Source of the DNA: Promethearchaeota archaeon
Lineage (GTDB): Archaea; Asgardarchaeota; Lokiarchaeia; Sigyniarchaeales; SOKP01
Length of the DNA stretch: 64,000 nt
Direction: 5' to 3'
NCBI GenBank assembly: GCA_029838195.1
Contig: JALGVJ010000002.1
Coordinates: 64,001 to 128,000, forward strand
Positions 42,480-55,027 of this stretch are shown here, piece by piece; positions within the stretch are counted from its first letter, which is position 1; each line of letters starts with the position of its first letter. The notes beneath the pieces are model-generated. The model searched no databases. It saw nothing but the letters and a program-made list of their open reading frames with translations, and was not told the origin of the DNA. A program made the translations under genes and the position numbers.

Positions 42480-44798
42480 TCACGTATTATATTTTTCTCG
42501 TTTTTTAATATAATTTTCAAAATGTCTTGAAAAAAGAGCGTGATTTGGAATGCGTGTTACTTCCTTTTTAAACTTTGGAAATTCTTTATTTAATAATGAA
42601 AGAATATTTTTCCAAGCCTTTTGATGTTCGGTTTTTGATCCAATTGATTTAGCCAAACAAGCCATGACATCTCTTGATTTTTGCCTCTTAAGATTCACTT
42701 GCATCACGTTAATAATTTTCTTTTTTAAATTCTTATAATCATCAGGTCTAAAACTTTCTAAAGAGAGAGCAAGAGAATCATCGGAAATCGGTATTATTTT
42801 AATGAGTTTATCTTCTTTAACATCTGCATTTGGAACTAATTCTAATTCAAAATCCTCCTTACTAATCCTTTCTAAAATGGGATATAAATCGCCCGGCGTA
42901 ATTTTAGTCTGTAATTCAATTTGAAAAGCAATATCGGAAATCGGAATGTAATAATTAGGATATTTTTCAGGATTCTCAATTCGAAAAATATATTCTTTCT
43001 TGATAATATCAAGAATTTGTTGTTTTATGGGCTCCGGAATCTTTCCTTCCTTAAAAGTGATTTTTTGGAACTTTAATTCTTTTGCTTTTTCTATTCTCTC
43101 TTCTTCTTGGAGTTTTTTTTTATAATTGGTCGAAAGGGAAGCTATAAATTGATCAGTTGCCTTATCGGCCTTTAAATCTGCCTTTAAACTCAATTCAGCA
43201 CGTCTTGGACGTGAAATGGAACGAATTAATTTGTCCGAGAGAAATTTTTGAGCTTTTTTTCGAGCAATATCTTTCTTTTCGAATTGTTCTGTGATTGAAA
43301 GAAAATCAATCATTAAAATAGACTTACCTCTTCCTTCTGATACCCGTTTTAATTCAATGTTTAAATCTTTTTGTGCGAGCCTTTTGATTAAAGATCGAAT
43401 GACTGCTTTCGATTGACGTGTTGTTTTCATTAATTGAAGTTCAATAGACTCTAAAGGAAAAGGTTCGCCTCTTCTAATATATTCATTTCTAATAAATTTA
43501 TAAATAATATCCATTGTCCTTTCCTCTTCATCTATGAGTTCTTTTTCCATTCTCAGGAACATGGATGTTTCATGAGGTTTCATGTAATAAAGTAAAAGCG
43601 TCAAACCCACAAAAATAATCATTATAATTGAGATAATATATTTATCAGCTAATAGAATTAAACCAAATCCGGAAATCTCTTGATTAGGAATATGAGTTGA
43701 TAAGGAATAGCGGGTGGTAGTTTGAGCAAAAATAGTAGATAACATGAATAAAATTAGTCCATCTTGTTTAAAGAATAAAATTTGCCATCCTAATGTTTTA
43801 CCCGTTTTATAAATCACGCGATATAAGAAAAACATGGAAACTCCGAATTCTAAAAAAAAAAAGAAGCTCGCGACACTCCCACTTGTTCCCAATACATTTT
43901 TTAGAGAATTTACGGTTTCAGGGCGTAATAACAAGTAAATCGTCAACTGCATTAGTTGGAAAAAGAATATGAAAAATACAATGAGGGAAAATGTAAAATT
44001 ATCAAAAATTCCTGCTCTACGCGTTTCTGCCCTTCTCCGAGTAAATACAAATTCTAAAGAAACAAAAATCATGGTAACAATCAAACTAAAATAGATTAGG
44101 GGCATGATGATTCTCATTTCCACATAATATACTAAAATTGCACCATGAGGATCCAAGGGAGCAAGGAAATCTAACGATAAATAGACCAGAAGAGCTCTAT
44201 AAAGCCAAGAAATAAATACCAATCCCGCTAAAATAAGAAATGGAGTAATTGTCACGATTAAATTTCTAAATACAGAATATTTTTTAATAATGCGTGCTTC
44301 AATTTCGGTTGAAAATCTCCTTGAATATATATAAAACCTACTGCTATAAATGAATAGCCAGATCATGGAAAATGTGAGTAAGAAGTAAGTTAGATTGAGT
44401 GAGGTCCCAATAACCCGTGCAAATAATAAAAAGAGAGGAATGAATATTCCAAGATACAAGCAAATTTGTTTTATTACAGTATTTTTCAGGAAAATAAATT
44501 CCCTAATTTGGTTGTTGCTATAGAGCAAAGAAAGTACTAAGTAAAAAATAATGAGGGAATTAGCAATGGCAAAGGGATTTCCAATTGTAAAAAATGATAT
44601 AATAACATTGTCGGGATTATTAATAGCAAATAATAATATAAAGGAATAAAATAGAAAGATGATATAAAGCCCTAAAAATTTTTTTTCAAAAGAAAAAGAC
44701 TTTGGAGGTTCTTGATTTTTTAAAAGTAAGGTATCTGGGAACAGAATTTTTTTTATCCTTTCCTTTAATTGACGTGGAGTAGTGTTCGTTTTTGACAT
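42480..44798 (-). CDS. Polytopic membrane protein (about 10 TM) with a large cytoplasmic region containing two related winged-helix-like repeats
   Basis: Hydrophobic residues about 40-405; repeats 'IIYKFIRNEY...IELQ...KDLNIEL' and 'ILDIIKKEY...IELQ...EDFELEL'. Confidence 0.7.
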   Translation of the reverse strand: MSKTNTTPRQLKERIKKILFPDTLLLKNQEPPKSFSFEKKFLGLYIIFLFYSFILLFAINNPDNVIISFFTIGNPFAIANSLIIFYLVLSLLYSNNQIREFIFLKNTVIKQICLYLGIFIPLFLLFARVIGTSLNLTYFLLTFSMIWLFIYSSRFYIYSRRFSTEIEARIIKKYSVFRNLIVTITPFLILAGLVFISWLYRALLVYLSLDFLAPLDPHGAILVYYVEMRIIMPLIYFSLIVTMIFVSLEFVFTRRRAETRRAGIFDNFTFSLIVFFIFFFQLMQLTIYLLLRPETVNSLKNVLGTSGSVASFFFFLEFGVSMFFLYRVIYKTGKTLGWQILFFKQDGLILFMLSTIFAQTTTRYSLSTHIPNQEISGFGLILLADKYIISIIMIIFVGLTLLLYYMKPHETSMFLRMEKELIDEEERTMDIIYKFIRNEYIRRGEPFPLESIELQLMKTTRQSKAVIRSLIKRLAQKDLNIELKRVSEGRGKSILMIDFLSITEQFEKKDIARKKAQKFLSDKLIRSISRPRRAELSLKADLKADKATDQFIASLSTNYKKKLQEEERIEKAKELKFQKITFKEGKIPEPIKQQILDIIKKEYIFRIENPEKYPNYYIPISDIAFQIELQTKITPGDLYPILERISKEDFELELVPNADVKEDKLIKIIPISDDSLALSLESFRPDDYKNLKKKIINVMQVNLKRQKSRDVMACLAKSIGSKTEHQKAWKNILSLLNKEFPKFKKEVTRIPNHALFSRHFENYIKKREKYNT

Positions 44799-45254
44799 TA
44801 TGTTTTTAATTCTGTTTTAAAAATTAATGCATTAATTAGTTTAAAAAATTTATGGATTAAATTTATTATGGAGAATTAAAAATTCTTATAGTTCAAATAG
44901 TAAAAAATGGTAAATTACAAAACGACAGAAAAATATTGAACATTTTCTATTAATCTGGGTCATGAATTCATGATTGTACAAAACCTTTATAGATAAAAAA
45001 ATTCATGATAAACATGATTACAAGGGCAATAAATTTAAAAAATCTAACATGTTTCTCATTTTTCTAAGATTTAGATTCCACGCTTTCATTTTGTTATGAT
45101 TTTGGATTTTATTTAATTAATATTAATTAACCTAATTTTAAAGTAAAAAAATTAATCTTAAAAAATTAAGGACAATAGAGATCATGTAGAAGATAACTTT
45201 AAAAAGATTAACATGTAAGATTTAAATATAAAACCATCATTTTTCTATATAAGA

Positions 45255-45521
45255 ATGGATAAAGAGAAAGAAAACCTTCTTGAATTCATTAAAAAAGCCA
45301 TTGAATATTTGGCAGAAAATAACATCTCAGATGTTGTTATTCTCTCCTCTTATAAAATTGCCTCTGTATTAAAAGAAAATTATGGCGTAGATATCAAAAT
45401 TGATAGAATAGGACGAGTTCTAAGCAATGTTGCTAAAAATAATCAATTAAAGCGGTTACAAACCAACATTCCTAAATATCAGTTATATAAACAAAAAATC
45501 CATACGTTGCGGTATTTCTAA
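45255..45521 (+). CDS. Small winged-helix-like protein
   Basis: 88 aa; 'SSYKIASVL...IDRIGRVLSNVA...KYQL' helix-turn-helix plus wing pattern. Confidence 0.6.
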   Translation: MDKEKENLLEFIKKAIEYLAENNISDVVILSSYKIASVLKENYGVDIKIDRIGRVLSNVAKNNQLKRLQTNIPKYQLYKQKIHTLRYF

Positions 45522-45560
45522 CTACGACATGTAAATTAAAATAGAAAAAAGATATCGTTT

Positions 45561-46907
45561 TCATGGTTTTTCCATTTGTTTAACCAAATCAGTGAGGGTT
45601 TTCAGGAGAGATTGAAAGGTGCTAACTTGATTTCTTAACGCATTAAATTTCTCAATAAATAGCTTATTCGTATCATCTATTTCTTGTTGATATTGTCCCA
45701 TGCTGGTATTAACATCTTGTTGAATTTTTGAAAAAATATCTTCCATCTCTTCCTTTATTTGATTTAATTTGCCTCTAAACTCCTCATATTTTTTTATGAT
45801 TTCTTTTGAAACAAAACTCGATATGTCTGAAGTGTTGGATAATCTCGAATCTAACTCTCTTAACGTTTCTATCACCTTGGAATAGTTGGAATTTAAATCC
45901 TTTTCCACGGTGTCAATGATCTCTTGTTTTGTTTTCTTTATGGCTTTTTCCCATTGATGTATCATGGTTTCATGTTCATCCTTATTCTCCATCAATTTTA
46001 AGAGAAATTCATTTAATTCTTGCTTAAATTGCTCTATTATCCATCCTTCTATTTTTTTTATCCCTCTTGAAATTCGCTTTTTCATGGATTCGGTCGTTTC
46101 TTTTAAATCATCCGCACCTTTAGTTGTACCTTCTTCAATGCGTTTTAGCCACGGATTGAAATTTGATTCAAAAGAGGCCGTGATGGAATTTGAGAGGGCG
46201 TTAAATGCTAATCTCATCCCATTAGATAAAAAAGGCTTTTCTGATTCAACATCTCCTTTTTCCCCCTCAATTAAAGCTGTTTTTGGAATTTCCTGTAATT
46301 CTCTCCCTGGAATGGGCTCTATCTCTCTTAATTCTTTTATAAATCTGGTATCATTGAACTCTCGAAGTTCGATTAATTCTTTAATCCATGTAAAATATTC
46401 TAAACTATCGGGTAATTCTATTTCCACATCCATTTCATGATATTGGAATGAATCCTTAGAATTTAGCCGGTCCATGCGAAACGCTTTTAGTTCTATCTTT
46501 TTATCCTCATTAAATAAAAGCGGATTGAAAATAATACAAAATCCAGTAGGATTACTCTCATTTTGAATTAATTGATGATTAGGTAAATCACTTTCATTAA
46601 ATTTTATTTGCTCTTGTAAGGAAGTGCGATACCATCCAAGAATGGATTGGTCTTCAGGTTTATATCGCTCATTAATTCGGAGCAGCAATTTTTCCTCAAA
46701 AGCAGGAATTTCTTCTGCCATTAATTCTACATGATCAAAAGGCACGCACTCATTTATGATAATTTTTTTTCCATTTTTTTCTTGGATTCCCAAGCAAAAA
46801 CCCACTACATTATATCTCTTTTCTAAGGCAGGACTTCCAAATCTAAGGGCATGACGAATCATTTGATGAAAGGCACGCCTCGTTAGTTTTATTAAAATGT
46901 TTTCCAT
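45561..46907 (-). CDS. MPN- (JAMM-dead) protein with long coiled-coil tail
   Basis: MPN fold motifs 'MIRHALRFG', 'NVVGFCLG', 'ILGWYRTS', 'FCIIFNP', 'KAFRM'; catalytic Glu and HxH are replaced. Confidence 0.8.
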   Translation of the reverse strand: MENILIKLTRRAFHQMIRHALRFGSPALEKRYNVVGFCLGIQEKNGKKIIINECVPFDHVELMAEEIPAFEEKLLLRINERYKPEDQSILGWYRTSLQEQIKFNESDLPNHQLIQNESNPTGFCIIFNPLLFNEDKKIELKAFRMDRLNSKDSFQYHEMDVEIELPDSLEYFTWIKELIELREFNDTRFIKELREIEPIPGRELQEIPKTALIEGEKGDVESEKPFLSNGMRLAFNALSNSITASFESNFNPWLKRIEEGTTKGADDLKETTESMKKRISRGIKKIEGWIIEQFKQELNEFLLKLMENKDEHETMIHQWEKAIKKTKQEIIDTVEKDLNSNYSKVIETLRELDSRLSNTSDISSFVSKEIIKKYEEFRGKLNQIKEEMEDIFSKIQQDVNTSMGQYQQEIDDTNKLFIEKFNALRNQVSTFQSLLKTLTDLVKQMEKP

Positions 46908-48433
46908 TATTCTTTTTTACCTTCCGCTTCTTGTTTTTTGTTCAATTCTGAAGTTAATTGTTTAATTTTTTTTTCGGATTGCGTTAACTTGTCTACTAAT
47001 CTATTCTTTTCAGCTGTTAATGTATTAATCTCCCTTTTTAATTCGCCTAGCTCTTCTTCCTGCTTACGAATAATTCCTTCATTTTTTTCTTTAATTCCTT
47101 CTATTTGAGTTATCATGTCTTTTAATATCGAATTGTGATTTTCCATTTCTCCCAACAATTCACTAGCAAGTTGTTCCATTTCCTCCCGATTAGTTTCCAT
47201 CCATTCTTGAAAATGAGTTTCCTTCGCCTTAATGTTTTCCTCAAGATTCGATTTAAACATGAAAACCTTCTCTTTTAACGGTTGAGCGTAATTTTTATCC
47301 AAATCTTCCAATTTTATTTGTTCCTCCAATTCTCTTGAAATTTTCTCTATATTATTGTAGTTGTTTTTAAAATTTTCTACCAAACCTTCGAAAGGCTCGT
47401 GAAAAGCTGCTTTAAAAATAGTATCAATTTTCGATTTGATATCATTTTTTAACAAATTCAAGTCCTCTAACAAGATTGGCTCGTGTTCTTCCAGTAGTAT
47501 TTCTTGTTCCACCCAAATGCTATCTATTCCATCTAGCCCTTCCTTTATAGAATTTTTTATCATTTTCTGAATGGAATGCAAACCCTCTCTTATCGTCCTG
47601 GCGATTTCTTCTAAATTTTCTCTCATCATGAAATTGGTCTTGATAATCCTCCTGAGTAGCTCTTGACTCCATTCATTTAAATATTCCACGAAGGGTTTTA
47701 TAAAGCCCTTTATGAGTTCATTTAACCCATTCTTTAGATGCCCCAAAAACTCCTCGTAATTTATTGAAGGACGCCTTGATTTTAATTGCTCTCGTGAGGG
47801 TATAAAAATTTCTCCAATAAAATCAGGCACTTCTTTGAGTTCCAAAATAGGAGGTTGCTTTTCATGGATTGAATTCATTAGTTCGATGAGTTTAAGGTAA
47901 TATTTTTGCGAATCCGGGACCTCTATAATCGTCTTTACCTCGTGATATTTTGAATTTACTCCCTTCGAAGGATCATCTAACCGAAATGTTCGAAAGCCTA
48001 CATCGCCCGGTTTTTCCAAATATAAATGATCGAAAACAATTCCAATCGCACTTGGATTTCCACTCTGCCACCCCAATTGATTCCTTATATCCGTTCTGGA
48101 AAAAAATATGGTGAGCTCAGGATGAGAATGATACCAACCCACTCCAAATAAATTCTGTTTCGCATATTTCATGTCGATCGCTTCAAAAACAGAATAATCC
48201 TCGGGAGAAAAAGAAACCTCAATAGAGCTTCCGTGAGAAATGGGAACAGCATCCTCCACGATTACGTTTTTTGGTGTTCCTTCCCCCTCTAATCGCCCGA
48301 TTAAAACGCCCATGACTTCTCTCAAGCGATTTTTATCGCGTGACTTGTTTCCAAAACGGAGCACGTGCATGAGCATCTTATAATATGCTTTCGGTCTAAT
48401 TATCACGATTGAGTTATCTTTCACGCTCAACAC
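46907..48433 (-). CDS. MPN+/JAMM isopeptidase (Rpn11/CSN5-like) with long coiled-coil tail
   Basis: 'KMLMH', 'EVMGVLIG', 'GWYHSHP', 'FSRTD', 'AIGIVFD'; complete JAMM motif; GTG start. Confidence 0.9.
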   Translation of the reverse strand: MLSVKDNSIVIIRPKAYYKMLMHVLRFGNKSRDKNRLREVMGVLIGRLEGEGTPKNVIVEDAVPISHGSSIEVSFSPEDYSVFEAIDMKYAKQNLFGVGWYHSHPELTIFFSRTDIRNQLGWQSGNPSAIGIVFDHLYLEKPGDVGFRTFRLDDPSKGVNSKYHEVKTIIEVPDSQKYYLKLIELMNSIHEKQPPILELKEVPDFIGEIFIPSREQLKSRRPSINYEEFLGHLKNGLNELIKGFIKPFVEYLNEWSQELLRRIIKTNFMMRENLEEIARTIREGLHSIQKMIKNSIKEGLDGIDSIWVEQEILLEEHEPILLEDLNLLKNDIKSKIDTIFKAAFHEPFEGLVENFKNNYNNIEKISRELEEQIKLEDLDKNYAQPLKEKVFMFKSNLEENIKAKETHFQEWMETNREEMEQLASELLGEMENHNSILKDMITQIEGIKEKNEGIIRKQEEELGELKREINTLTAEKNRLVDKLTQSEKKIKQLTSELNKKQEAEGKKE

Positions 48434-48561
48434 TATATTCGTTGATACCTTAAATTTATTCTACAATTTTTAAATTGCTTAATAATGATATTAAAAATAT
48501 ATTTTCTAATTAAAATAAATAGAAACTAATGCTCCTTAATATTGGAATGTGTAAAACACTC

Positions 48562-49245
48562 CTAATGGGGTAATTTTTTACCACAATAAGGACAATAGAT
48601 CCAATTCAAATTTCCTCCGCAATAGGGACAAAATCTAGACCCTTTATCTTTTTCTCCTTTTTTTGCTCCAGCAGGCCCGCTACTTGGAATGAAAGGAACA
48701 GTTTCTTGATCAGAACCCGAAGGTATGGAAGGAAGCGTGCGTGAAGTCTTAGTAGCGGGAGGTGCAGGCTCCGTAAAAGGAGGTTCTTGCTCGCGAGAAA
48801 ACAATACTCTTTGCTGAAATGCTTGCCTCTTTTCTTCTTCGGTTTTAGGTTTATCTATTACCGTTCCTTGGGTCGCGGGTCTTTTTAATTCGGATTCAGG
48901 TACTTTGTCCAATTTTATATGCTTGGTCTCTGATACGGGAGCAGACATTCGCATTTTGTCTTTTTTATCTAGGGCTTGTTTCAATAAGGCTTGTACAGTC
49001 TTCATTATGCCGTATGGATTTATATTGGGGAGCGTGACAGTCCTTAGAACCCATCCAACAATGATATTCGAGTTTGGTCTGTCACCCTCCACATCTTCAT
49101 CTTTAAACACGTAAGAATCGATGATATTTTTTCCTTTTAGAATTCTACCTGCCCATTTGCCATTAATTAATCCCAATTGTAAGAGATAAGAAGTTCCGGA
49201 GATTCCTAATGCCGTAGTTAACGGCTCAAATCCTAATTCTACCAT
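48562..49245 (-). CDS. Hypothetical protein with Pro-rich linker and C-terminal zinc ribbon
   Basis: Globular N-terminal ~95 aa; P/S/T-rich linker; 'FCPYCG...YCPYCGKKL'. Confidence 0.75.
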   Translation of the reverse strand: MVELGFEPLTTALGISGTSYLLQLGLINGKWAGRILKGKNIIDSYVFKDEDVEGDRPNSNIIVGWVLRTVTLPNINPYGIMKTVQALLKQALDKKDKMRMSAPVSETKHIKLDKVPESELKRPATQGTVIDKPKTEEEKRQAFQQRVLFSREQEPPFTEPAPPATKTSRTLPSIPSGSDQETVPFIPSSGPAGAKKGEKDKGSRFCPYCGGNLNWIYCPYCGKKLPH

Positions 49246-49421
49246 TTAAATCACTATTCACATTTAAGATGACATGAAATATCATGGATGAATATTACTA
49301 ATTAGATAGAAATTTTTCTATAAATAATTTTTGTCTTTTCTATGACAGAGTAAAAAAAAATAAAAACATGTTCTTTTATAATTGTTTTAAAAGTAAATAA
49401 ATATCAAAAAATGGAAACAAC

Positions 49422-50381
49422 ATGACCGTTATTATTCCTAAGGAAGTATATTTTACGATTGTTGCCGCGTGTGTTCGATTTGCCAATAAGAAGATTCCGA
49501 GAGAGCGGTGGTTAGAGGAGTGTGGAATTTTCATCGGAAAAAACGTGGGGAAAAAGAAAGACCAAGATGTGGTAATTACGGCGGCTTATCCTATCATGCA
49601 TGAAACGTATGATCCAAACGCAGTGGTCGATCGATATGTATGGTCCGATGAGGATTATATCTCTACGACGATGATTGAAGATGAGGCTTTTGCGCGAAAT
49701 GAATTCGTGGTAGGATGGTGGCATTCGCATCCGGGTTTCAAGGTAATGTTATCGGGTTTTGGGGATAGAAAAACCACGCTCTCCTATCAGAGCTTGAATC
49801 CTTTAGCCATTGCCTTGGTATTCAATCATGAGCGGTTGCTTCGTCAAATAGAGCTTCCCGGTAGGCAAGGGGATCCGGTGAAGCAATTAAAAAATGATCC
49901 TGGCTTCAAGATTTTTAGGTTAGAGGATCCTAATAATGAGAAGAGCAATACTATTGAAGTGAAGTATCGAATAGAAGGGTTTGAAAGTCCGGAACAAATG
50001 GTCTTGGAGGCTCAGAAGCTCATTATAGATATCACTAACTTTTTTCCCCCGGATAATCTCGTGGAGTTTTATAGTAATTACATTAATGGACGGATCAGTA
50101 AATTAAATTCTCAATTATTGGGCACGGAGGAATATTTGAGGACATTACTTCGTAAGGGGGAGGGACATCGCGTTTCTGAGGTATTGGAGCAGCAAAAGAA
50201 GGACATTCAAAAATACGTGGCAGAAACGTTTCTTCAGATTGAAAAAATTAAGAGTTTCATGAACTATCTCGAATATAAAGAGAGGACGAGGGTAATTCCG
50301 GCGATTGAAGATATTTTGCACCTTTGGGATGAAACCATTGGCGGCTTGGATGAAAAATTAGCGGAGCTTTCCCGGATTTAA
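49422..50381 (+). CDS. MPN+/JAMM protein with helical C-terminal region (third paralog)
   Basis: 'EECGIFIG', 'VVGWWHSHPG', 'LSGFGD', 'AIALVFN', 'GFKIFRL'. Confidence 0.85.
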   Translation: MTVIIPKEVYFTIVAACVRFANKKIPRERWLEECGIFIGKNVGKKKDQDVVITAAYPIMHETYDPNAVVDRYVWSDEDYISTTMIEDEAFARNEFVVGWWHSHPGFKVMLSGFGDRKTTLSYQSLNPLAIALVFNHERLLRQIELPGRQGDPVKQLKNDPGFKIFRLEDPNNEKSNTIEVKYRIEGFESPEQMVLEAQKLIIDITNFFPPDNLVEFYSNYINGRISKLNSQLLGTEEYLRTLLRKGEGHRVSEVLEQQKKDIQKYVAETFLQIEKIKSFMNYLEYKERTRVIPAIEDILHLWDETIGGLDEKLAELSRI

Positions 50382-50627
50382 AAATTTTTTTTAAGAAAAA
50401 CATGGGATCCGTGTTTAAATTTAAATTTTTTCAGTGTAATGCATGTTTTCGCAAGTGATTAAGCGGATTTTCAAGGAAAAAGTTTACCTTTCCCTAATTT
50501 TAATAGTATTGAATCATACAAAATCTTTTTTTGCTTTCTAAGTTTTTATGGGAAAAAGGTTTAACATAAATTAATTTTCAAAAAATTGGATTAAAGAAGA
50601 TAAGCAATAACTCAATATAGCATTAAG

Positions 50628-52832
50628 ATGAAGAGGATAAATTTTCCGTTTACAGCGATAATTGGACAAGATAAAATGAAGATAGCTTTAATTTTGAACG
50701 TGCTGGATCCGTTAATTGGAGGTGTTCTTCTTACGGGGCATCAAGGAACTGGAAAATCTACTGCTGTCCGATCTTTAGTGGATATAATGCCAAAAATAGA
50801 AGTGGTGAAAGATTGTCCCTTTTCTTGTGATCCTAATTCGAATTTAGATGAGCTCTGTGATGAGTGTAGAGAGAAAAAGGAAAAGGGAATCTTGGAAACC
50901 GAATGGAGAGAAATGGAATTAGTGAATCTTCCTTTAGGATGTACTGAAGATATGGTTTGCGGCTCTCTCTCAATTGACAAGGTGCTCACGAAAGGGGTTT
51001 CGGAGCTTCATCCGGGATTATTGGCAAAAGCAAATCGAGGAATCCTTTATATAGATGAGATCAATTTGCTTCAAGATCACATAGTGGATACACTTTTAGA
51101 TTCCGCTGCTTCGGGGGTAAATATTATTGAACGAGAAGGAATTTCGGTTATTCATCCTGCCCGATTCGTTTTGGTTGGAAGTATGAACCCTGAGGAAGGT
51201 GAATTACGTCCGCAAATAGCAGATCGCTTGGGATTAGAAGTAAAAATCGTTTCTCCTCGAAATCCGAAAATTAGAGCAGAAATTACAAAGAGGGTCATTG
51301 AATTTAATGACAATCCAAAAGAATTTATCAAGCAATTCGAAAAAGAACAAAAAGATTTAAAAGAGAGAATAATCCGGGCTCGTAAAATAATCAAGGAGGT
51401 TGAAATTCCAACTGCTGTCTACGAATTAGTTTCGAAAATTGTAGATGAATTAGAGATTTATTCGCAACGTGCGGATATCACTTTCATTCGGTGTGCGCGA
51501 GCTCATGCAGCATTCAATGGAAGAAAAAAAATTAATCAAGAGGATATTAACGTTGCCATGGATTTAGTTTTTGAACACCGAATTAAATCCCTTCATTATG
51601 AAATGACCCCTCAAGAGATTGAAGCAAAAATCACCGAGGTATATGGCAAAATAAGAGAAGCCATAGAAGATTTAAACGTTTACCAACCAAATAAGGAAAC
51701 AGAAGGCCCTTTAAAGCATACAGACGAACCGCAAAAAGAATTTCAGAGACAACCCATCGATCCGGATAAAGTTGACATACCTGAAACGAGAGAACAAAAA
51801 TTACCTCCTCCAAAGTATCCCGATAAAAAAGAAAGAGAAGCTAAACCAGCAGGGGGATGGAAAGTTAAGAATATTCCGAAGTACAAGGAGGATCTAAATT
51901 TTTTCGAAAATAAGATGGACGCACTTCCTTTAATTTATAATATGGAAAAACGCATGACCTCTATATTAAATAATTTAAGGAAAGACAGGAAGATTTCTAA
52001 TTATGGAGGTAGGGGCATAGGTAGGAGAATAAAGATGGTCTCTTCCCGGAAAGGCAGATACGTTTCTTATAGAATTCCAATTAATCATCAACCGAAATCG
52101 TTAGCCTTGGACGCAACCATTCGAACATTCTTTAAAAATCAAGTCTATAATCATACGAAAATCGATTTTCCCATTAAATTCGAAGAAAACGACTTGAGAG
52201 ATAAAATCTTTGAATATCGAGCACCCTTAGCTCTATTTTTTGTATTAGATAGTTCTGCCTCCATGTATTATGTCATCAAACAGATGACGGATGTCATTCT
52301 CTCCCTCCAAAAAGAAGGGTACAGAAAGCGTGATAAAATCGCATTAATCATATTTCGAGGTAAAGATGCAATAGTTTTACAAAAACCCACCGTCTCGTTT
52401 CAAAATGCGCTGCGCAAATTAAAAAACATTAAAGGAAAATCCTACACGCCAATGGCTGCAGGTTTAAATGAATGCCTCAAGCTCATTAAAATTGAGAAAT
52501 TGAAGAACCGAAACATCATTCCGGTAATTTTTATTTGTTCTGATTGTGGAGCTAACATCTCCGTTAAATATCCGGATCTCGTAGCCCAGGTAGAATCTGA
52601 TTACACTTTAATCGTGGAAGAATTAAATGACATCGCAAAAAAAATCGCAAAACACCGCATTCATTTAATTGTATTGGAACCAAAAAAATCCCAAGCCACG
52701 AGAGCTCTTGGAGTTCATCCTTACTCTGCAGAAATGATAAAAAAGAATTTTAAAAAACACGGAGCCGATATCTATCAATTTGACAGATATAATCCCTCTT
52801 CGCTTATTTTGGAACTTAAGAAAATCTTATGA
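50628..52832 (+). CDS. ChlI/ChlD-type AAA+ ATPase fused to a vWA domain
   Basis: 'FPFTAIIGQ', Walker A 'GHQGTGKS', Walker B 'LYIDE', 'MNPEEGELRPQ', Pro-rich linker, MIDAS 'DSSASM', 'TPMA'. Confidence 0.92.
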   Translation: MKRINFPFTAIIGQDKMKIALILNVLDPLIGGVLLTGHQGTGKSTAVRSLVDIMPKIEVVKDCPFSCDPNSNLDELCDECREKKEKGILETEWREMELVNLPLGCTEDMVCGSLSIDKVLTKGVSELHPGLLAKANRGILYIDEINLLQDHIVDTLLDSAASGVNIIEREGISVIHPARFVLVGSMNPEEGELRPQIADRLGLEVKIVSPRNPKIRAEITKRVIEFNDNPKEFIKQFEKEQKDLKERIIRARKIIKEVEIPTAVYELVSKIVDELEIYSQRADITFIRCARAHAAFNGRKKINQEDINVAMDLVFEHRIKSLHYEMTPQEIEAKITEVYGKIREAIEDLNVYQPNKETEGPLKHTDEPQKEFQRQPIDPDKVDIPETREQKLPPPKYPDKKEREAKPAGGWKVKNIPKYKEDLNFFENKMDALPLIYNMEKRMTSILNNLRKDRKISNYGGRGIGRRIKMVSSRKGRYVSYRIPINHQPKSLALDATIRTFFKNQVYNHTKIDFPIKFEENDLRDKIFEYRAPLALFFVLDSSASMYYVIKQMTDVILSLQKEGYRKRDKIALIIFRGKDAIVLQKPTVSFQNALRKLKNIKGKSYTPMAAGLNECLKLIKIEKLKNRNIIPVIFICSDCGANISVKYPDLVAQVESDYTLIVEELNDIAKKIAKHRIHLIVLEPKKSQATRALGVHPYSAEMIKKNFKKHGADIYQFDRYNPSSLILELKKIL

Positions 52833-52894
52833 GGGATATTTTTTTATTATAAAACACTCATTTTTCCACGAATGGTATTTCGTAGTTCTATCTC

Positions 52895-54169
52895 ATGAAG
52901 CAAGTAAAAAAAAAATCCGTATTAGTAGTAGGATTTAATTCCCGTCCTTTAGTTTCTTCTTTAAAACAAGCAGGATATGAAATATATGTCGTAGATTTTT
53001 TTGGAGACTTAGATCTTTATCCGCTCGTAAAAGATAGTATCATTTTAACAAAAGAATTAGGTAAAAACTATTCACTTTTGAGAAAAGACTACGGTAAATT
53101 CTTAACTTCTTATACTATTGAAATGATGCTAAAATATCGGTTTATTGATTATTTAATCATAGGAAGTGGGTTAGATGATGGTTTTGAGGAAAGAGATTTA
53201 ATTCTCAATGCGATAAAAGAAAACGAATTAACTATCACGTATATTAATAATGATACCCGCGTGGTTAAAAATACCAGAAATATTATCAAACTCCATGAAA
53301 TATTAAAAAAAAATGGATTTCATGTTCCCAAAACAGTTTCCTTTATTGCATATAAAAAAAATCAAACCTCATTAGAGTATCCGCTGGTATTGAAGAAAAA
53401 AACGGGTAGTGGGGGCGTGAATGTATATAAATTTGAAAATGAACGTGAATTAAACTTCTTAATTAAAAGATTTTCAATTTCCAATGATTTTAAGCCGGAA
53501 GAATGGTTTGTTCAAGAATATTTAAAAGGAATCCCCGTGAGCTGTACAATAATCTCAAATGGAAAAGAGAGTAAAGTAGTGTCAATTAACCGCCAAATAA
53601 TTGGGTTAAATTATTTAAATCCACCTAGTGAGTTCATGTATTGTGGGAATATCGTGCCGGCGAACTTATTAAAGAGTGATGATGAAAAAATTGCTAAAAT
53701 ATCGCTCTTTTTATCAAAACATCTTGGTTTAAAGGGGATTAATGGATTTGATTTTGTTTTAAAAAATCATCAACCATATTTCATGGAGATAAATCCAAGA
53801 ATTCCCGGTTCAATCAACGCTTCCGAAGCGGCTTTAAATTTAAATTTATTAGATCTGCATCTTAAATCGTTTGATGACAATAAATGGGAAGAAATAAGTG
53901 AAATTTTTGATAAAGTCCAACCCAAGCAATTTGCAACTAAATTAATTTTCTTTTCCCCTCATGCAATATCCGAACAGAAAATAGAACAAATTAATTGCTT
54001 AAAACACCTACATGATAAGACCATTCCGGAAAAACGTGCAAATAAAGGAGAGCCTTTATGCACGATTCTTCATGTAAATAATTCATTTAATTCTTCATTT
54101 TTTGGAGCTTTAAAAATTGTTGATAAGATCTATGAGATCCTTGAAAATAGGCCCTCCTTAAAAAACTAA
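52895..54169 (+). CDS. ATP-grasp protein (COG2232-like, methanopterin/C1-associated family)
   Basis: 'DFFGDLD', 'GSGG', 'QEYLKG', 'YCGNI', 'GINGFDF', 'EINPRIPG'. Confidence 0.85.
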   Translation: MKQVKKKSVLVVGFNSRPLVSSLKQAGYEIYVVDFFGDLDLYPLVKDSIILTKELGKNYSLLRKDYGKFLTSYTIEMMLKYRFIDYLIIGSGLDDGFEERDLILNAIKENELTITYINNDTRVVKNTRNIIKLHEILKKNGFHVPKTVSFIAYKKNQTSLEYPLVLKKKTGSGGVNVYKFENERELNFLIKRFSISNDFKPEEWFVQEYLKGIPVSCTIISNGKESKVVSINRQIIGLNYLNPPSEFMYCGNIVPANLLKSDDEKIAKISLFLSKHLGLKGINGFDFVLKNHQPYFMEINPRIPGSINASEAALNLNLLDLHLKSFDDNKWEEISEIFDKVQPKQFATKLIFFSPHAISEQKIEQINCLKHLHDKTIPEKRANKGEPLCTILHVNNSFNSSFFGALKIVDKIYEILENRPSLKN

Positions 54170-54283
54170 AGATATCGCCTTAAAAAACTCGTACGGTTAT
54201 CAAATAAACAATATTGAATTTTATTCTTTTAATTTATTTTTTGAAACTTTAACAAGAGAAATCATTAAATTTAGGAAAAGAAA

Positions 54284-55027
54284 TTAGGCCTTAATTATAT
54301 TTTTGATTCGAACAATGTAACTTCCTAATTTTTCTTTTGCAGGAACAGCAATACATAAAAGCCTTCTCTCGTCAATACTATGGATGATAATTGACCCTTG
54401 TTCTCCGGAAATAATTGAATATTCCAGATCTTTAGTTTGTAATAAAATGTCAGACAAATTAAAAAGGGCTGAAACCATCGCCGAAATCATCGGTTCTGGC
54501 ATGGCACTCTGAATTCTTATGGGAAGTCCATCTCGAGTCATGATAGCAATAAAACTAAGATCAGGGATGGCTCGCTTTAAAGCTTTAAAAATTTCTTCTT
54601 TAATTAATTCGGAGGTTTCGATATAAGCAGAAATCTGTAAAGCAAAATTTTCTAAACGCTTCACGTACAGATCAAGCCCTTCTAACTCAGCCAATTCACG
54701 ATTCAAATACGCAACAAGGGTGATATTTTCCGTTAAATAGCTGAGAATTATGCGTTCTTTTCCGGTAATGATATCATGAGAAATTTTTTGATTTAAGGAA
54801 TCTCTGATTAATTTCGAAGAGAGAAAAAGCAAACTGCTTGTTGCGGCTGAAATTTCATCTTCTCTTAATTTCGGGGAATATTGTTCTTTAAAATGACTCG
54901 CAATTGGAGAACCACCTTGCGTGCCGATGTTAATACCTAATAAAGCAGAGTTTTCAGATAATTCTTTTTTAATTAAATTTTCAATCTCTAGATTAATCTG
55001 TTCAAAATTTTCCTTATCAATCTCCAT
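54284..55027 (-). CDS. Tandem (double) roadblock/LC7 domain protein
   Basis: Two units: 'GTQGGSPIAS...ISAATSSL' and 'MTRDGLPI...ISAMVSAL...IISGEQGSII'. Confidence 0.8.
   Translation of the reverse strand: MEIDKENFEQINLEIENLIKKELSENSALLGINIGTQGGSPIASHFKEQYSPKLREDEISAATSSLLFLSSKLIRDSLNQKISHDIITGKERIILSYLTENITLVAYLNRELAELEGLDLYVKRLENFALQISAYIETSELIKEEIFKALKRAIPDLSFIAIMTRDGLPIRIQSAMPEPMISAMVSALFNLSDILLQTKDLEYSIISGEQGSIIIHSIDERRLLCIAVPAKEKLGSYIVRIKNIIKA

Follow-up and report, generated by a model that had tools for sequence, protein, structure and literature searches.

Paired MPN proteins of one Asgard order: a JAMM enzyme-like copy that stays intact and a maintained partner that repeatedly loses its catalytic motif

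Eukaryotic ubiquitin machinery characteristically couples a catalytically active MPN+ subunit with an inactive paralog, as in the proteasome lid, COP9 signalosome, eIF3 and BRISC/BRCA1-A. In the Rpn11–Rpn8 and CSN5–CSN6 pairs, short helices after the MPN domain join a lid helical bundle, and in BRCC36–Abraxas/KIAA0157 the C-terminal coiled coils of the two subunits pair. Here we analyse two adjacent genes, A (an intact JAMM, or MPN+, protein) and B (its MPN− paralog), in a 64,000-nucleotide window of Asgard DNA (the whole stretch analysed; positions 64,001 to 128,000 of JALGVJ010000002.1), which forms part of contig C72 of a 4.5-Mb metagenome-assembled genome (96.6% complete, 7.9% contamination); public relatives carry the label Promethearchaeota. 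We find that A and B form an order-wide operon, composed of a copy whose catalytic motif is always intact and a partner that loses it repeatedly under continued selection; this is the chief result beyond the preliminary description of the locus. The single structural study to cover an archaeal Rpn11 states that active/inactive MPN organisation is not known in archaea (PMC6043591). Our literature search (subscription-only papers outside its coverage) found no account of the pair or of its family.

Both open reading frames are real, and both pass the Pfam JAB cut-off of 22.5 bits (A, 50.8 bits; B, 27.9 bits; coordinates in Table 1). The JAMM residues of A lie in the stretches REVMG (E39), GWYHSHP (H102 and H104) and SRTD (S112 and D115), with the five codons falling within 48089–48319. 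The matching stretches of B read YNVVG, ILGWYRTSL and FNESD (positions encoded within 46587–46811), such that E/H/H/S/D has become N/R/S/N/D: the Glu, both His and the Ser are replaced, and the Asp is retained. The AlphaFold2 (AF2) model of A has an MPN fold, its top Foldseek match being Rpn11 (4o8x_B; E 9e-13, TM by target 0.74), and sequence matches of A in the PDB are to CsRpn11 and Rpn11, the nearest solved relative being 6fjv_A (CsRpn11 from Caldiarchaeum subterraneum; E 1.1e-9). B retains the fold (predicted local distance difference test, pLDDT, mostly 80–92 over the domain), again with Rpn11 as top match; for both models CSN5, BRCC36, eIF3h and CsRpn11 follow. The two genes do overlap by one base on the minus strand, where TAATG joins them (CCATTA at 46904–46909 on the plus strand), and an identical overlap is present in three other loci (L005, L006 and L038). 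A and B are 26% identical overall and have two signatures in common, MLMHVLRFG (A) with MIRHALRFG (B), and IEVPDSQKYY..LIEL (A) with IELPDSLEYF..LIEL (B), which coincide with the predicted interface helices H1 and H4 of the MPN domains. The preliminary description had named an active/dead MPN pair with overlapping genes, paralogous through shared signatures and carrying long coiled-coil tails; all of this stands, with A and B as sister clades in the tree described below and long helices of heptad periodicity predicted in both proteins.

The helical tails make up over half of each protein, and their lengths are conserved in both the A and the B family. Hydrophobic periodicity of 3.5 residues is strong in both (z 3.9 to 10.4 versus shuffles) and absent from the MPN domains. 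AF2 models built on family alignments place helices at 245–375 and 383–505 of A, after a low-confidence linker, and at 228–259 and 265–446 of B. Despite its predicted disorder, the linker of A has near-invariant columns from K192 to P222 (a stretch of about residues 192–213, plus P222); the consensus over residues 192–213 (47795–47860) is KEPPILEINExPDLFGDIxFPS. LQEIP, in the disordered linker of B (46283–46297), is strongly conserved family-wide. Judged on conservation, both stretches look like docking motifs for further partners. The public gene call for A (P0004, 487 residues) is 21 residues shorter than our 508-residue frame, and would start at Met22, leaving out 48371–48433, if the absent residues are N-terminal as its length suggests. 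Residues 8–21, which account for the first strand and for half of helix H1, are near-invariant in homologues, for which reason the GTG start at 48433 is the better call.

Comparison with the described pairs shows a mixture of likeness and difference. Like Rpn11–Rpn8 and CSN5–CSN6, A and B are paralogs, an active JAMM subunit beside one without a catalytic site; each has an N-terminal MPN domain followed by helices, contact is predicted through the first and last MPN helices, and Rpn11 is the best match of both in sequence as well as fold. Unlike those pairs, A and B stem from an independent, lineage-specific duplication and have no PCI genes nearby; B is nearer to Rpn11 than to Rpn8 and is motif-intact in a third of lineages, and the tails are coiled coils of 220–260 residues rather than short helices. 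The Rpn8–Rpn11 dimer has been described as antiparallel (PMC6043591), and the predicted A–B dimer is parallel. In architecture (MPN domain, then a pairing coiled coil) the locus most resembles BRCC36–Abraxas, likewise an MPN+ enzyme with an MPN− partner, the coiled-coil pairing of A with B being predicted. BRCC36 is among the top fold matches of A with long alignments (6gvw_B, 5cw3_A), but there is no orthology, identity is just 16–19%, and the tails of A and B are several times longer. CsRpn11, the closest solved relative of A, differs in being a compact single protein with no dead paralog, encoded in a ubiquitin/E1/E2/E3 operon. In crystals it forms a parallel homodimer by way of H1 and H4 (PMC6043591), as predicted for A–B, and this fits a homodimeric ancestor that duplicated into a heterodimer. 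From the JAMM of Asgard ubiquitin operons A and B differ as a separate, long-tailed family that lies outside any such operon.

The reach of the B family depends on how it is searched. A word-indexed search returned more than 360 relatives of A and only two close relatives of B, which first suggested that B is a young dead copy; an exhaustive HMMER search corrected this, showing that B constitutes a separate family, with about 40 clusters (50% identity) and proteins of 440–470 residues. Run over 400 genomes of the phylum, the B-family profile gives strong full-length matches (E 1e-115 to 1e-168) in three families of the same order: throughout f1, to which the window belongs, in f2, and in part of f3. 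Other classes of the phylum give only weak matches (E ~1e-25), and from families f4–f7, in the same class, come single A-like proteins with equal scores on the A and B profiles. Of 54 B loci read, A and B are both readable in 50, the rest lying at a contig edge or lacking a readable A. A is directly upstream of B on the same strand in every one of these 50, with gaps from −26 to +17 nt, so the tightly coupled, syntenic operon is borne out across three families of one order. The pair is sampled in more than 100 genomes, encoded as an operon. The sole separation seen is in G173, by a 6-kb insertion with unrelated genes. This insertion (locus L108, G173:C10, 8800–14880) holds a hexapeptide-repeat transferase, an Arf-like GTPase domain protein and two open reading frames without assignment; the B of that locus, with motif ESHSA, is still an intact frame.

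Absences concern both genes at once. A and B are missing from three single-contig f3 genomes (G135, G138 and G143) and from two f1 genomes that are 97–99% complete (G190 and G227), and apparent absences of A in G167 and G250 are copies cut at contig ends; leaving such cut copies aside, no genome was seen with only one of the two. The pair is thus dispensable and lost as a unit. The five genomes without A and B retain other MPN paralogs. In one f3 locus (L109, G132:C2:53058-54425) an A-like match holds one TGA and one TAA, with no separate B resolved, and may reflect either a damaged copy or an assembly error.

A tree of the MPN region (IQ-TREE, LG+C20, quick search; eukaryotic MPN sequences were not among the rows) groups A and B in one clade (Shimodaira–Hasegawa-like approximate likelihood ratio test 96), with B a starred clade and A and B sister clades. 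Branching is parallel within the two, f2 being basal, followed by one f1 genus, then f3, then the rest, and the sister group of A+B is formed by the single-copy proteins of f4; we therefore place one tandem duplication at the base of f1+f2+f3. Two long-branched proteins inside the B clade (L069 and L073, from f6 and f7) were considered as traces of an older duplication and rejected, given that their motif is still EHHSD and that the A profile gives them the higher score; their placement is a probable artefact of long-branch attraction.

The two clades have treated their active sites differently. EHHSD is retained in 47/47 readable copies of A, and in 21/21 other MPN paralogs checked in relatives, versus 17/54 copies of B, among which there are 26 different degenerate states. 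On a B tree built without the five JAMM columns, basal lineages are intact and the intact/degenerate character changes at least six times. Across clades the Glu position has gone to Q, N, A, D or K, the first His to I, S, L, V, C, Y or R, the second His to R, N, S or I, and the Asp to E, A, G, S, T, H or N; the window's lineage has the most degenerate motif and the longest branch. Read from these sequences, B was catalytically intact ancestrally and still has the intact motif in about a third of sampled lineages. Its catalytic residues have been lost independently at least six times.

Loss of the motif has not been accompanied by decay. Against an 80%-identical relative (synonymous changes unsaturated), the ratio of non-synonymous to synonymous substitution (dN/dS) is 0.17 for A (MPN domain 0.08, tail 0.25) and 0.33 for B (MPN domain 0.19, tail 0.44). 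Over 15 close genome pairs B ranges from 0.15 to 0.41, typically about 1.3 times the value for A; pairs with an intact B motif give 0.16–0.24 (one EHHTD pair, 0.41) and degenerate pairs 0.15–0.33. All 54 B copies analysed have full-length open frames. Since this purifying range holds regardless of motif state, B is maintained rather than decaying, as the preliminary description anticipated in supposing that the dead copy is kept in relatives without relaxed selection. Within the MPN domain of B, positions predicted to contact A are more conserved than the rest (0.665 versus 0.585, permutation p 0.018), and the former catalytic positions are not (p 0.29); the catalytic positions of A are near-invariant (conservation 0.993).

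We modelled full-length A with full-length B, each with its own family alignment. Three runs gave ipSAE values of 0.72, 0.68 and 0.67 (median 0.68), against 0.00 for the best of three controls; in the calibration, 58 of 80 solved complexes attain that mark, as do 2 of 110 mismatched pairs, though these counts hold only roughly here, our own alignments having been used. The runs agree in at least 50% of contacts, with partner pLDDT of at least 62. Contacts between the MPN domains involve the first helix (H1) and the last helix (H4) of both (A 14–32 and 170–192 with B 13–28 and 163–189); those between the tails join A 252–359 to B 253–355, in register and with a/d spacing over about 100 residues, and A 430–437 lies near B 431. 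The predicted geometry is a parallel dimer running into a parallel coiled coil, on which the second tail helix of A is folded back.

We consider it fairly likely that A and B are a co-translated pair of tandem duplicates forming a parallel heterodimer, with A the catalytic subunit and B a structural or regulatory partner. The gene that duplicated in tandem, once and inside one order of Promethearchaeota-type Asgard archaea, would have encoded an MPN+ isopeptidase that resembled Rpn11 and ended in a long coiled coil. The products would be translated together and most likely assemble as an A–B heterodimer, H1 and H4 of both MPN domains packing as a four-helix interface and the chains continuing as the in-register coiled coil of about 100 residues, with A's second tail helix folding back on it. 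A would supply the single catalytic Zn site and, from its motif and relatives, probably cleaves ubiquitin-like isopeptide or C-terminal peptide bonds; three ubiquitin-family matches are present in its genome, on contigs C8, C87 and C26. We propose that B lost its JAMM residues repeatedly, and completely in the window's lineage, because its own catalysis had become dispensable. The preliminary description had envisaged an obligate active/dead heterodimer. The heterodimer is supported in silico by the model and by the conserved surface of B; the active/dead division applies to the window's lineage and not to the whole family.

Several observations count against this proposal. The full JAMM motif is present in B of a third of lineages, so two active sites may have been present in the ancestral complex, and B may still be an enzyme in those lineages. 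Binding of A to B rests on a single structure prediction, and its pass may partly reflect memory, complexes of Rpn8–Rpn11, CSN5–CSN6 and BRCC36–Abraxas having been solved; close paralogs also tend to pass, so a good score would be probable for an A–A or B–B homodimer as well. Conservation at A's predicted interface does not exceed that of the remaining MPN domain. The pair does not adjoin ubiquitin, E1 or E2 genes, the neighbouring AAA+-vWA gene looks chelatase-like, and much of the wider synteny described below is confined to a single family and may be no more than inherited gene order.

Some of these points lend themselves to another arrangement, which we regard as unlikely, in which A and B do not bind each other but form separate homodimers through the same H1/H4 and coiled-coil surfaces, B having taken up a separate, non-catalytic task, perhaps that of a receptor for ubiquitin or substrate, and being merely co-expressed with A. 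CsRpn11 homodimerises via H1 and H4 in crystals, the single-copy relatives of f4–f7 presumably act alone or as homodimers, and the complex prediction does not tell hetero- from homodimers, nor is A's interface specially conserved. Against separate homodimers stand the near-universal adjacency of A and B with overlapping or near-touching stop and start codons, their joint absence, and tails of conserved length in both families, for which in-register pairing along about 100 residues is predicted.

It is also improbable, to a further degree, that the tails are the main functional part of the proteins, building a filament, membrane-bound coat or tether, perhaps with the neighbouring protein D772, with proteolysis secondary or regulatory. 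The size and conserved length of the tails, and the purifying selection on them (dN/dS 0.25–0.44), would suit such a role, as would weak apolipoprotein-like profile matches and a D772 that is syntenic and better conserved than A or B. The profile matches are, however, low-complexity helical ones, there is no sign of higher-order assembly or membrane binding, and the invariance of A's catalytic residues in 47/47 copies means that catalysis is clearly selected. That B is a redundant duplicate on its way to a pseudogene, the pair having no joint function, is very improbable and was rejected on the selection and retention data: B has a degenerate active site and evolves faster (longer branches; 22–34% identity across the family, versus 36–55% for A), but it has been retained since the base of the order with full-length frames throughout, a conserved interface and LQEIP motif, and purifying dN/dS in all 15 pairs, including 0.19 for the dead MPN domain.

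Equally hard to credit is the suggestion, raised as one of two options in the preliminary description, that the A–B pair is homologous and ancestral to the eukaryotic MPN+/MPN− pairs (Rpn11/Rpn8, CSN5/CSN6 and BRCC36/Abraxas), for which speak the same domain order in an Asgard archaeon and the fact that Rpn11, CSN5 and BRCC36 are the closest solved relatives of A and B. It was rejected on the one-order distribution and on profile similarity: B is confined to f1, f2 and part of f3, with weak or single A-like matches elsewhere, and the B-family profile finds Rpn11 at 1.4e-13 and Rpn8 just at 5.9e-5, profile and model alike being nearer to Rpn11, CSN5 and BRCC36 than to Rpn8. Basal B copies, moreover, still have the active motif. 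Neither the profile scores nor a duplication confined to one order make B an orthologue of Rpn8, CSN6 or eIF3f/h. No PCI-domain partner is present in the conserved neighbourhood (the genome's only PCI matches, all on other contigs, are partial and of winged-helix type, from a search that also gives matches in control prokaryotes), and no UEV (BRE-like) or MERIT40-like partner was identified, the neighbours being without a UEV match in Pfam or NCBIfam. The other option, a convergent version, fits: because the nearest profiles and models are those of Rpn11, the duplication lies inside one order and no PCI partner is nearby, the A–B pair is, on sequence comparison, a convergent analogue of the three eukaryotic pairs and not their ancestor.

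Table 1. Coordinates of A, B and neighbouring features in the window
Feature	Position	Strand	Description
Gene A, MPN+ (JAMM) protein	46907..48433	-	508 aa, GTG start; intact E-HxH-S-D motif
A MPN domain, aa 1-188	47870..48433	-	AF2 model, Foldseek, invariant motif
A linker, aa 189-244	47702..47869	-	Predicted disordered; pLDDT <50 at 191-224
A helical tail, aa 245-505	46919..47701	-	Predicted: two helices of ~125 residues each, heptad periodicity
TAATG junction	46905..46909	-	A's TAA stop and B's ATG share base 46907
Gene B, MPN- paralog	45561..46907	-	448 aa; JAMM positions N33, R94, S96, N104, D107
B MPN domain, aa 1-183	46359..46907	-	AF2 model, Foldseek, dN/dS
B linker, aa 184-227	46227..46358	-	Predicted disordered; LQEIP motif aa 204-208
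B helical tail, aa 228-446	45570..46226	-	Predicted: mostly one ~180-residue helix, heptad periodicity
Z227, zinc-ribbon protein	48562..49245	-	Just upstream of A; syntenic across window's family
C319 (C), third MPN+ paralog	49422..50381	+	319 aa, divergent, shorter helical tail; Pfam JAB 34 bits
s88, small conserved ORF (open reading frame)	45255..45521	+	Just downstream of B, opposite strand
D772, conserved protein	42480..44798	-	Downstream of B; candidate partner only

Around the pair, the gene order of f1 (42480–55027 in the window) comprises a 247-residue protein, an ATP-grasp ligase, an AAA+-vWA protein and C, then Z227, A, B, s88 (opposite strand) and D772, often followed by a copper ATPase; there are some rearrangements and one insertion. 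Loci of f3 have only A–B in common with this, plus D772 in one locus. We treat the wider cluster as a lead, not as evidence. The Pfam zinc-ribbon matches of Z227 are sub-threshold (24.7 bits versus a cut-off of 27), s88 is 57–84% identical and syntenic in 18/21 loci, and the D772 translation, read by eye, suggests an N-terminal half that is hydrophobic and apparently crosses the membrane several times, followed by a C-terminal half that is soluble. D772 is 49% identical to a syntenic 812-residue protein of locus L007, between distant genera; across f1 its conservation is 46–65%, above that of A and B. None of the three has an informative match in Pfam, NCBIfam, PDB sequences or the ESM Atlas. 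The AAA+-vWA neighbour was considered as a MERIT40- or Rpn10-like partner and set aside, its best family match being the ChlI/ChlD-type chelatase TIGR02442 (E 3e-177; 590.9 bits, below the curated 779-bit cut-off); it may be unrelated to A–B.

Other MPN genes are encoded in the same genome. C has an intact EHHSD motif with S-x3-D spacing (LSGFGD), and is 55–78% identical and syntenic across f1, always adjoining the chelatase-like gene; proteins of 325–359 residues in genomes without A–B may be its orthologues. Contig C7 (L001) has a 525-residue MPN+ protein with a different helical tail. Contig C26 (L003) has an operon with an E1-like gene, an E2, a 265-residue Rpn11-like JAMM and a 389-residue protein, from which it follows that A and B are not the genome's ubiquitin-operon protease. 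The 389-residue protein that follows the C26 JAMM is hydrophobic, apparently a membrane protein, with a Cys-rich tail.

The A–B family offers a natural replicate series for studying how a catalytic homodimer turns into an enzyme–pseudoenzyme heterodimer, with intermediate states in related lineages, and A and B proteins from different lineages can be expressed and compared directly. It points to a second JAMM system, independent of the ubiquitin operon; its apparent absence from three single-contig genomes of the same order may explain why it went unstudied. A more far-reaching reading, which we offer only tentatively, is that A–B might be the core of an as yet undescribed Asgard deubiquitinase-type machine: an obligate heterodimer on a coiled-coil stalk of some 15–20 nm, whose conserved linker motifs would serve as docking sites for the syntenic Z227 and D772 in membrane-tethered ubiquitin editing. 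Among its relatives, each step by which an MPN− pseudoenzyme comes into being would then still be represented, from the single gene through two active copies and partial degeneration to copies that are fully dead. If this is true, the origin of Rpn8, CSN6 and Abraxas could be studied experimentally with the family as a model.

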